Shown here one piece after another: positions 51,263 to 52,838 of a stretch of 64,000 bases of DNA (within the stretch, counting starts at the first letter, position 1; the number at the start of each line of letters is the position of its first letter). Both the position numbers and the translations under genes were made by a program. This stretch comes from Dictyostelium discoideum (lineage: Eukaryota). Location: positions 1,440,001 to 1,504,000 of the forward strand of contig CM000153.2 in assembly GCA_000004695.1 (NCBI GenBank), in the 5' to 3' direction. Under the pieces are notes generated by a model, which was not told the origin of the DNA, searched no databases, and saw only the letters and a list, made by a program, of their open reading frames with translations.

Positions 51263-51660
51263 AAAAAAAAATAAAGGAAAAAGAAATATTAGTTTAAAAT
51301 TTTAATCAATCATATAATCTTATCATTTTTTATTTATCTTTATCCTATTAAAAGAATTTTTTTCATGGTGAATATTAGAACTAATTAATAAAAATAAATA
51401 TATAAAAAAAAAACTAAAAAAAAAAAAAAATAGAAAGAAAAAAAAAACTAAAAATAAAAAAAAAATTTTTAAACAAAAGAATCTTTTTTTTTTTTTTTTT
51501 TTTTCAAAAAAAGTTTCCAGTTTATTATGTTCTCATTTTGAATTTGAATCTAGAACTATATATTAAAACACATTTTCAATCAACATAAATTTGTTATTGC
51601 TGATGTTAATCAAATTACAAATTTAGTTGGTTATTTAGAACCAATTGGAAAAAGCAATTG

Positions 51661-51735
51661 TTGTTGTTGTTGTTGTTGTTGTTGTTGTTGTTGTTGTTGT
51701 TGTTGTTGTTGTTGTTGTTGTTGTTGTTGTTGTTG
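51661..51735. repeat. (TTG)n microsatellite
   Basis: About 25 perfect TTG units. A second (GTT)n tract lies at 50279-50339. Both flank or lie inside the Fanzor-like element. Confidence 0.9.
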
Positions 51736-52173
51736 GTAAACCACTAACAGAATTTACAACAACAGTTGTTCAAACTCAAACTTCAAAATCTGAACCTGTT
51801 ACAAACTATTATTTACTTTGTGACATTTGGTACCACAAGATCAAGATTTTAGAAGAAAATTACAAACTGGTAAGTTTCTTTTTTTTTTAATAAAGATTTT
51901 GAATACTAAGAATCTTGAAGTTTTAAATAATGATAATGATAATAATAATAATAATAATTAATAATAATAATAATAATAATAATAATAATAATAATAATAA
52001 TAATAATAATAATAATAATAATAATAATAATAATAATAAAAATAATAATAATAAAAATAATACTAATCTATAAATAATAAATAAAAAAAATACTAATTTA
52101 TTATAAAAATTTTCTTTTTTTTTTTTTTTTTATAAATTAAATTGGTGATACATCTAATGAAATTTATGAAAGT

Positions 52174-52566
52174 TTGAAGAATCAATTAAAATATAGATAT
52201 GCGGATGGTAATATAAAAAAAGATTATTTAAATTTTATTTATTCAAGAGATTATTGTTATCAAGATTTGATTAGAGATAAAAAATCAAATGCTTCAGAAA
52301 AACAATTCAAAAGGAATTTAATTGATTTTTTACATAGAAATCACAACGAAGAGATTCAAATCTTGAAATCAAAAATCAATAAAATCAATGATAAAGATAT
52401 CAAATCGTTCTTTCAATTTGTTATAGTTTATTTTGGTTCTGCTCATTTTTCACATAGCTCTGGAGGTTGTCAAACTGGTTATGGGACAAAAAGAATCATT
52501 AAAATTTGGGAAGATTTAGGTTGTAGAGTTATATTGGTAGATGAAGTTTATACTTCACAGGTATGA
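52174..52566 (+). pseudogene. TnpB/Fanzor-like (IS605 OrfB-type, RuvC-II/III region) gene fragment, truncated after the RuvC-III YTSQ motif
   Basis: The ORF ends ...SAHFSHSSGGCQTGYGTKRIIKIWEDLGCRVILVDEVYTSQV followed by a stop and GTATGA. The pattern h.(Y/W)(K/E).....G..V..VD(P/E).YTSQ is the TnpB/Cas12 RuvC-III entry motif (ISDra2: LEYKAERAGGQVIRVDPRYTSQ). The expected RuvC-II Glu looks replaced (FVIVYFGSAHF). A possible upstream exon, 51645..51870 (...NYYLLCDIWYHKIKILEENYKL, GTAAGT donor), follows a (TTG)25 tract, but I could not join it in frame. Confidence 0.5.
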
Positions 52567-52653
52567 ATAATTATATATATATTTAATAATATAAAAATGA
52601 AAATAATAATAATAATAAATAATAATAATAATAAATAATAATAAATAATAATT

Positions 52654-52828
52654 TTTAATGGTAAAGTTGAGTTGTTCCCTTTATGTATATGTTAAATGCA
52701 CCAACATTATCACGATTTTTAATTCCATGAATTTTGCAACGTTTTAATTTGTAACATTTATTGAAACACTCGAGTTTTTCATTTGGTCCAACGGGACATT
52801 TTACACCTTTTACTTGCGAAAAATATTT
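52654..52828 (-). pseudogene. TnpB/Fanzor-like C-terminal Zn-ribbon plus RuvC-III tail fragment, inverted relative to the 52174..52566 fragment and carrying a frameshift
   Basis: Minus-strand frame 52800..52654 reads KCPVGPNEKLECFNKCYKLKRCKIHGIKNRDNVGAFNIYIKGTTQLYH*. That matches the TnpB C-terminus (C..CG...R.F.C..CG...DRDxNAAxNI), with the catalytic first Asp replaced by Asn. Immediately upstream, shifted by one base within a T5 run (plus 52798-52802), the minus strand reads *KYFSQVKGVK. This repeats the Y(T/F)SQV junction found at the end of the plus-strand fragment. It is too short (49 codons) to appear in the ORF track. Confidence 0.5.
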
Positions 52829-52838
52829 TTAGTTTTAT

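Follow-up and report, generated by a model that had tools for sequence, protein, structure and literature searches.

A partly inverted Fanzor1 gene remnant within a mosaic insertion of the Dictyostelium discoideum genome

The 64,000-nt stretch of Dictyostelium discoideum DNA analysed here (the window; positions 1,440,001 to 1,504,000 of the forward strand of contig CM000153.2 in the AX4 reference assembly, GCA_000004695.1) carries, at 52070-52830, a remnant of a gene for Fanzor1, the RNA-guided, TnpB-like RuvC nuclease of eukaryotes. We consider it likely that this remnant is non-functional and partly inverted, and that it lies in a mosaic insertion produced by template switching and not by active Fanzor transposition. 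Only about the C-terminal 40% of the gene survives, namely a helical linker, the RuvC-II strand, the (N/D)ExxTS motif, a putative, degenerate zinc ribbon and a RuvC-III motif of the form RD..N.A.NI. Recognition of this remnant explains the orphan hypothetical protein DDB_G0284143 as the fossil of a Fanzor1 gene and adds the D. discoideum complex to the group 1 and 2 dictyostelids in which Fanzor1 has left its footprint, while revealing no active nuclease or new system. Indeed, Fanzor1 families have been known since 2013 in Dictyostelium (Cavenderia) fasciculatum (DFa-1 to -4) and Polysphondylium (Heterostelium) pallidum (PPa-1 to -7; Bao & Jurka 2013, PMC3627910). The novelty attributed to the relic in the preliminary description of this DNA was therefore overstated, and only the trace in the D. 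discoideum complex is new. A full-text literature search returned no paper that connects Fanzor with D. discoideum or names DDB_G0284143.

The two parts of the remnant lie on opposite strands, and the two peptides reported for them earlier are present as described. The plus-strand part corresponds to an open reading frame (ORF) at 52174-52566, which is open from 52141 over 141 codons in AX4 and ends in ...RVILVDEVYTSQV. For comparison, ten dictyostelid Fanzor1 proteins were taken from Additional file 3 of Bao & Jurka 2013 (PMC3627910). A profile hidden Markov model (HMM) of Fanzor1, covering the RuvC-II strand, (N/D)ExxTS and the part between them, was run against all 2396 pieces of the six-frame translation of the window. 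The plus ORF (52141-52563) was the sole significant match, with E=5.7e-13 and 45.9 bits against E=1.5 for the next best piece. A second Fanzor1 HMM, of 202 positions, matched it over positions 94-202 (E=1.6e-11). In blastp, the plus ORF matched the same segment in six of the ten dictyostelid proteins (E 4e-7 to 2e-3), and a seventh, DFa-1, gave a weak match at the same position (E=0.24). When the plus ORF was aligned with seven dictyostelid Fanzor1 proteins, its residues G99, F103, G109, E135, T138 and S139 fell in invariant columns. The RuvC-II strand reads FVIVYFGSAHFSHSSGG, with the Gly99 codon at 52435-52437, and the VDEVYTSQ motif contains Glu135 (codon 52543-52545). In Fanzors the canonical RuvC-II position is normally occupied by an inert Gly or Pro, and a conserved Glu has moved to a site downstream of it (Jiang et al. 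2023, PMC10530073); the plus ORF has both features, in G99 and E135, and E135 may be the relocated catalytic Glu. The frame is terminated by an in-frame TGA (52564-52566) located inside an old intron donor.

The minus-strand part is read in one frame from 52828 to 52658 as KYFSQVKGVKCPVGPNEKLECFNKCYKLKRCKIHGIKNRDNVGAFNIYIKGTTQLYH, followed by a stop codon at 52657-52655. KYFSQVKGVK and CPVG... share this frame, so that the 1-nt slip in a T5 run that was thought to separate them disappears. The piece contains the RuvC-III motif NRDNVGAFNI, with its Asp codon at 52711-52709. In dictyostelid Fanzor1 this motif normally begins with NRD or HRD, as in NRDVNGANNI of PPa-6. The residues previously regarded as lost catalytic positions (the NRD in place of DRD and the missing RuvC-II Glu) turn out to be the standard Fanzor1 configuration, with G99, E135 and the Asp of NRD. 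An HMM of compact Fanzor C-termini ranked the minus piece best in the window (E=5.8e-5; next 0.57), and the piece still came first, with E=0.0047, after removal from this model of the Dictyostelium sequence P0010, a related protein presented below. Direct pairwise comparison of the minus piece with the collinear C-terminus of P0010 gave E=2e-4. The earlier assignment to an inactivated member of the TnpB/Fanzor family is supported. In Pfam, the joined peptide matched PF07282 with E=5.1e-5 and 23.8 bits, just below its gathering score of 26.3, and it did not match PF01385. Neither piece alone matched PF07282. A Pfam match to Tyr-DNA_phospho was rejected as spurious (18.7 bits, below 22), phmmer found no TnpB, Fanzor or Cas12 match among the PDB sequences, and NCBIfam contained nothing relevant.

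The orientation of the two parts was clarified by related copies. A profile search found, besides the AX4 gene model DDB_G0284143 (P0008), the protein ACTFIY_002032 (P0009) of D. cf. discoideum, whose locus, L002, holds both pieces collinear on one strand. Positions 52363-52618 of the window correspond to L002 10247-10499 with 89.5% identical DNA, and positions 52674-52830 to L002 10734-10577 with 91.8% identity, in reversed orientation. The part between the two pieces in L002, which comprises the remaining sequence of a short intron plus about 15 codons (KCPTGVILANKEIEK), is absent from AX4, where about 77 bp (L002 10500-10576) are missing. The two copies share their 5' limit, window position 52070 being equivalent to L002 10149. 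L002 itself has an internal deletion of about 183 bp relative to AX4, plus frame breaks. The substitutions between the two copies, 13 non-synonymous and 6 synonymous, are indistinguishable from neutral. A full-sensitivity search of 1.84 billion representative proteins added a single relative to these, P0010 (ACTFIZ_008151, D. cf. discoideum, E=2.1e-4), a protein of 211 amino acids encoded at locus L007 (10001-11132), which has a precomputed PF07282 match. P0010 shows 28% protein identity and the same motif order (...IIVIGYGNANF...NEDYTSQ|RCCKC...KCTKHHGVINRDDNAFGNM); L007 has collinear exons and represents a more distant lineage. All three loci have an intron at the same position after ..YTSQ, with the donors CAG|GTATGA in AX4, CAA|GTATGA in L002 and CAA|GTAAGT in L007. 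With the pieces collinear around a conserved intron in the related copies, it is the AX4 order that is derived, by inversion of the last exon. In L002, Y(T/F)SQ..KCPxG already occurs twice on a single strand, as a tandem (YTSQ|intron|KCPTG...KKYFSQVKPVKCPVG); this doubling must therefore predate the inversion. Of the two events suggested previously for the 3' end, the inversion is thus supported, while the doubled motif is no evidence for a head-to-head duplication. On either side of the L002 fragment there is a U1 small nuclear RNA (snRNA) gene (L002 9413-9574 and 11033-11194; Rfam RF00003, 82 and 86 bits), one within each of the two 300-nt direct repeats discussed below.

The remnant belongs to an insertion of 1.56 kb in AX4, from 51263 to about 52825, flanked by a target duplication of ~375 bp (50917-51262 and 52823-53197). 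The site is uninterrupted in four of the four other D. discoideum-complex assemblies compared (L003-L006), in which a copper P-type ATPase gene and a Rap-GAP gene are separated by a spacer of about 1.2 kb instead of the 3.15 kb of AX4, and none of the 30-mers specific for the relic was found. Alignment with L004 locates the junctions: the window up to 51262 corresponds to L004 up to 5934, and from 52826 onwards to L004 from 5557. L003 behaves in the same manner, the window from 52825/52826 corresponding to L003 5625 onwards. The bases of L003 (5625...) and L004 (5557...) that match the right copy also align to the left copy, and the junction between the insertion and the right copy falls within 52823-52838. 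From left to right, the insertion is composed of an A/T-rich stretch, a fragment of a ZNF277-like gene, an (AAT)n filler, the Fanzor1 remnant and its inverted last exon, which adjoins the right junction. The A/T-rich stretch (51263-51515) matched nothing but low-complexity sequence in the compared loci. At the right junction a short A/T microhomology, ATATTTTT, is possible but not decisive, the genome being so A/T-rich. Filled in AX4 and empty in the four other assemblies, the site is a cleanly dated structural variant that shows the shuffling of gene fragments in an A/T-rich genome.

A block of 120 nt within the duplicated target is identical between both AX4 copies (51143-51262 and 53078-53197). 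It is also essentially identical in the empty sites of two other assemblies, although in the spacer around it identity between them falls to only about 85-90%. Counted from the stop codon of the Rap-GAP gene, on the minus strand, the block sits about 90-200 nt downstream and is probably a conserved 3' untranslated region (3'-UTR) or terminator element; Rfam gave no match for it.

The ZNF277-like segment (51516-51870) was formerly included, from 51645 on, in the relic interval. Its DNA is 86-92% identical to the first exon of a ZNF277-like gene, of the C2H2 zinc-finger type, from D. dimigraforme (L001 10243-10545), and P0001, the protein encoded there, matches the fragment with E=5.2e-20. Relative to that gene, the fragment has indels of +2, +2, +71 and +2 nt, the 71 nt being due to (TTG)n, whose expanded run occupies 51658-51735, and its reading frame is broken. 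Only about 350 bp of the gene (L001 10001-12777) are present in the window. Judged by its sequence, the segment is a pseudogene fragment of an unlinked gene and not a member of the remnant. The right part of the interval 51645-52830 given in the preliminary description therefore holds, and 51645-51890 does not. The same distinction applies to the two intron donors proposed there: GTATGA is the donor conserved after ..YTSQ, while GTAAGT at 51871 merely marks the end of the ZNF277-like fragment. The peptide KFVIADVNQITNLVGY (51590-51640), considered as a RuvC-I motif, was rejected, as it belongs to the ZNF277-like gene. A match of 18834-19103 to a second ZNF277-like gene model of L001 was also discarded, for it consists only of (AAT)n, a poly-Asn microsatellite. 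One protein search covering the fragment returned no D. discoideum match there, though the same search also missed DDB_G0284143.

Neither an uninterrupted frame nor a set of collinear exons is present in AX4, where the last exon lies on the opposite strand. RuvC-I, which carries the catalytic Asp and reads GIDxGR in dictyostelid Fanzor1, was found neither in the window nor in L002 or L007. Consistently, the match to the 202-position HMM begins at 94 in AX4 and at 155 in L002 (155-202), with nothing upstream, L007 included. What inactivates the gene is the inversion, the missing ~77 bp and the lack of the N-terminal half with its RuvC-I; no nuclease can be made, because the RuvC-I aspartate is absent along with that half. 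The search proposed earlier for an omega-RNA-like structure nearby gave no such structure: the 3' end shows no excess structure indicative of a guide RNA (omega/fRNA), with fold z-scores of +1.87 in AX4 and -0.27 in L002, which is a weak test for a decayed element, and Rfam found nothing in the window. The Sola2 transposases of DFa-2 and PPa-1 gave no tblastn match with E<=1 in the window or in L007, and only a chance-level one in L002 (E=0.65, about 9.5 kb from the relic).

Full-length dictyostelid Fanzor1 proteins have 945-1756 amino acids and a RuvC-I, their genes contain introns, and several families reside in Sola2-type transposons with terminal inverted repeats and 4-bp target duplications (PMC3627910). 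The AX4 remnant shares with them the RuvC-II block (I/V)xFxG(S/A)AxFxHxSxG...(N/D)E(F/Y/C)xTS(K/R/Q), with an invariant Gly at the canonical RuvC-II position and an invariant Glu in ExxTS, the C-terminal NRDxNxAxNI (INRDVNGANNILLAG in PPa-6, NRDNVGAFNIYIKG in AX4) and an intron-containing gene. On the other hand, it keeps only about 200 codons, lacks RuvC-I, has its last exon inverted and shows no Sola2 remnant. The distance from ExxTS to RuvC-III is about 55 residues in the relic, the part known from L002 included, versus roughly 60-100 in PPa and 200-280 in DFa proteins. Unlike the Sola2-Fanzor chimeric transposons, with their short terminal inverted repeats and 4-bp A/T-rich target duplication, the relic stands between copies of an about 375 bp duplication. 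TnpB (IS200/IS605 OrfB) and Cas12f show the same order of VDxxYTSQ, a zinc-ribbon-like segment and RDxNxAxNI, and their PF07282 model (Cas12f1-like TNB) is matched at a sub-threshold 20-24 bits. They differ in that the relic has Gly instead of the RuvC-II Glu, as do Fanzors and 'TnpB2' (PMC10530073), in that its cysteine ligands are degenerate, and in that no PF01385 match and no guide-RNA-like structure were detected. It has counterparts in the L002 and L007 fragments, which are likewise 5'-truncated C-terminal remnants, though with collinear exons and, for L002, a location between two U1 snRNA genes.

In the ancestral arrangement, which L002 still shows, the two pieces are collinear exons on either side of the short intron after ..YTSQ. 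The features of the insertion suggest the following scenario. Template switching associated with repair or replication would have yielded a short tandem duplication with templated filler, the templates being an older relic locus and the ZNF277-like gene; no transposition of an active Fanzor element would be involved. The AX4 insertion resembles templated insertions of the complex type, and short tandem duplications containing filler DNA, in its ~375 bp target duplication and in its mosaic of unlinked pieces, one of them inverted. Twin priming by a retroelement was also considered and rejected, because intron sequence is retained in the relic and because the direct and inverted parts follow each other in an order that does not fit.

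Several explanations compete with that of a remnant. That the motif matches reflect chance similarity in an A/T-rich region whose translations abound in lysine and asparagine is hardly credible: although all Pfam matches stay below the gathering score, and the PDB and NCBIfam searches gave nothing relevant, family-specific HMMs make both pieces the unique top matches in the window, and three independent loci agree in the order of the pieces and in the position of the intron. An error of the AX4 assembly could, in turn, have placed the two pieces on opposite strands. The assembly is gapped, with a run of N near 16.6 kb, and the region is extremely A/T-rich and flanked on each side by a repeat of about 375 bp. 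This seems very improbable, since the inverted piece measures only about 180 bp in unique sequence and would fit within individual Sanger reads, several indels distinguish the two repeat copies, which thus do not represent a collapsed or duplicated read pile, and both junctions are clean against two independent empty-site sequences. It is also quite improbable that DDB_G0284143 represents a true small protein-coding gene, possibly domesticated, with its origin in the C-terminal region of Fanzor1. The model (P0008, 127 amino acids) is 99% identical to the plus ORF, with its exon 2 at 52199-52566, and the open frame kept in AX4, the gene models called at all three relics (P0008, P0009 and P0010) and a pN/pS (ratio of non-synonymous to synonymous change) of 0.34 over 64 codons, based on 14 substitutions only, would agree with a functional gene. 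However, joining the presumed exon 1 to 52199 requires a 1.8-kb intron spanning the duplicated spacer and a foreign pseudogene fragment, and the stop codon of the ORF falls inside the ancestral intron donor. Furthermore, L002 is disrupted by its deletion of about 183 bp and its frame breaks, all five substitutions in the 3' piece are non-synonymous, the locus is absent from four related assemblies, and the large protein search recovered no relatives other than three Dictyostelium fragments. The DDB_G0284143 model looks like an annotation artefact.

Some points weigh against a non-functional remnant brought in by template switching. We infer the template-switching origin from the architecture of the insertion, and, in contrast to the templated insertions to which it is likened, the donor loci were not found in AX4; moreover, the inversion is known from one reference assembly. 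For the AX4 counterpart of L002, the putative donor, a search by way of the BUD13 neighbour returned no D. discoideum entry. At the protein level, an HMM of long-insert dictyostelid Fanzor1 C-termini gives the minus piece only 3.1 bits, which is uninformative. The zinc-ribbon/RuvC-III piece never attains the Pfam gathering score, the PF07282 values ranging from 20.4 bits for the collinear L002 translation to 23.8 bits for the joined AX4 peptide. Its Cys/His pattern, C-x10-C-x3-C-x5-C-x2-H, is not the canonical CxxC...CxxC. Finally, L002 is bracketed by 300-nt direct repeats that are 94% identical and 1620 bp apart, which could point to a specific mobilisation mechanism and not to two unrelated repair accidents. 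Following this line, the remnant would be part of a small non-autonomous mobile unit, or would be a recurrent donor of templated insertions, that creates unusually long target duplications of 300-400 bp and spreads in the D. discoideum complex. Both close copies, in AX4 and L002, are indeed found between long direct repeats (about 375 and 300 nt), the AX4 repeats are proven by the four empty sites to be target-derived, and the 5' limit is common to both copies. We nevertheless regard this as unlikely. Only two such copies are known, the sequence between repeat and relic is wholly different (the ZNF277-like fragment in AX4, an unrelated one in L002), and neither transposase remnants nor a Sola2 match nor terminal inverted repeats were found, the latter with no search aimed at them. 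In addition, the third relic, L007, has no flanking direct repeats, and those of L002 may be a natural tandem pair of U1 genes. The proposal that the remnant forms the recognisable core of a small unit of which copies have repeatedly reached new sites within the D. discoideum complex, with duplication of 300-400 bp of target, beside the presumed 3'-UTR block in the case of AX4 and around a U1 snRNA gene in that of D. cf. discoideum, appears quite improbable. If it is true, sequence would be mobilised, or inserted from templates, in this genome in a way that has not been described before.

Table 1. Features of the insertion site and of the Fanzor1 remnant (window coordinates).
Feature	Position	Strand	Basis
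Presumed exon 1 (MLLC..) of DDB_G0284143, 14 nt	50360..50373	+	only upstream MLLCQ-encoding site; followed by GTAATC
Left copy of duplicated target (direct repeat)	50917..51262	.	repeat search; aligns with single-copy sequence of empty sites L003 and L004
A/T-rich first part of the insertion	51263..51515	.	absent from empty sites L003 and L004
Frameshifted fragment of ZNF277-like C2H2 zinc-finger gene	51516..51870	+	DNA identity to D. dimigraforme L001
(AAT)n microsatellite filler	51895..52069	.	read from sequence
A/T-rich sequence just upstream of the relic ORF	52070..52140	+	shared with L002 (blastn 52070-52180 = L002 10149-10253, 79%)
Fanzor1 remnant: helical linker, RuvC-II strand, VDEVYTSQ motif	52141..52560	+	Fanzor1 HMM, blastp
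5' part of conserved intron, donor CAG|GTATGA (52558-52566)	52561..52618	+	homology to L002 intron up to L002 10499
Inverted last exon of Fanzor1 remnant: putative degenerate zinc ribbon and RuvC-III	52650..52830	-	single-frame translation; L002 identity; HMM
Right copy of duplicated target	52823..53197	.	repeat search and alignment to L003 and L004

Outside the locus, a run of N at about 16.55-16.70 kb, inside the ORF 16265-16744, marks an assembly gap in the reference. The ORF at 57378-58460 is identical to XP_638723, a citrate lyase beta-like protein.

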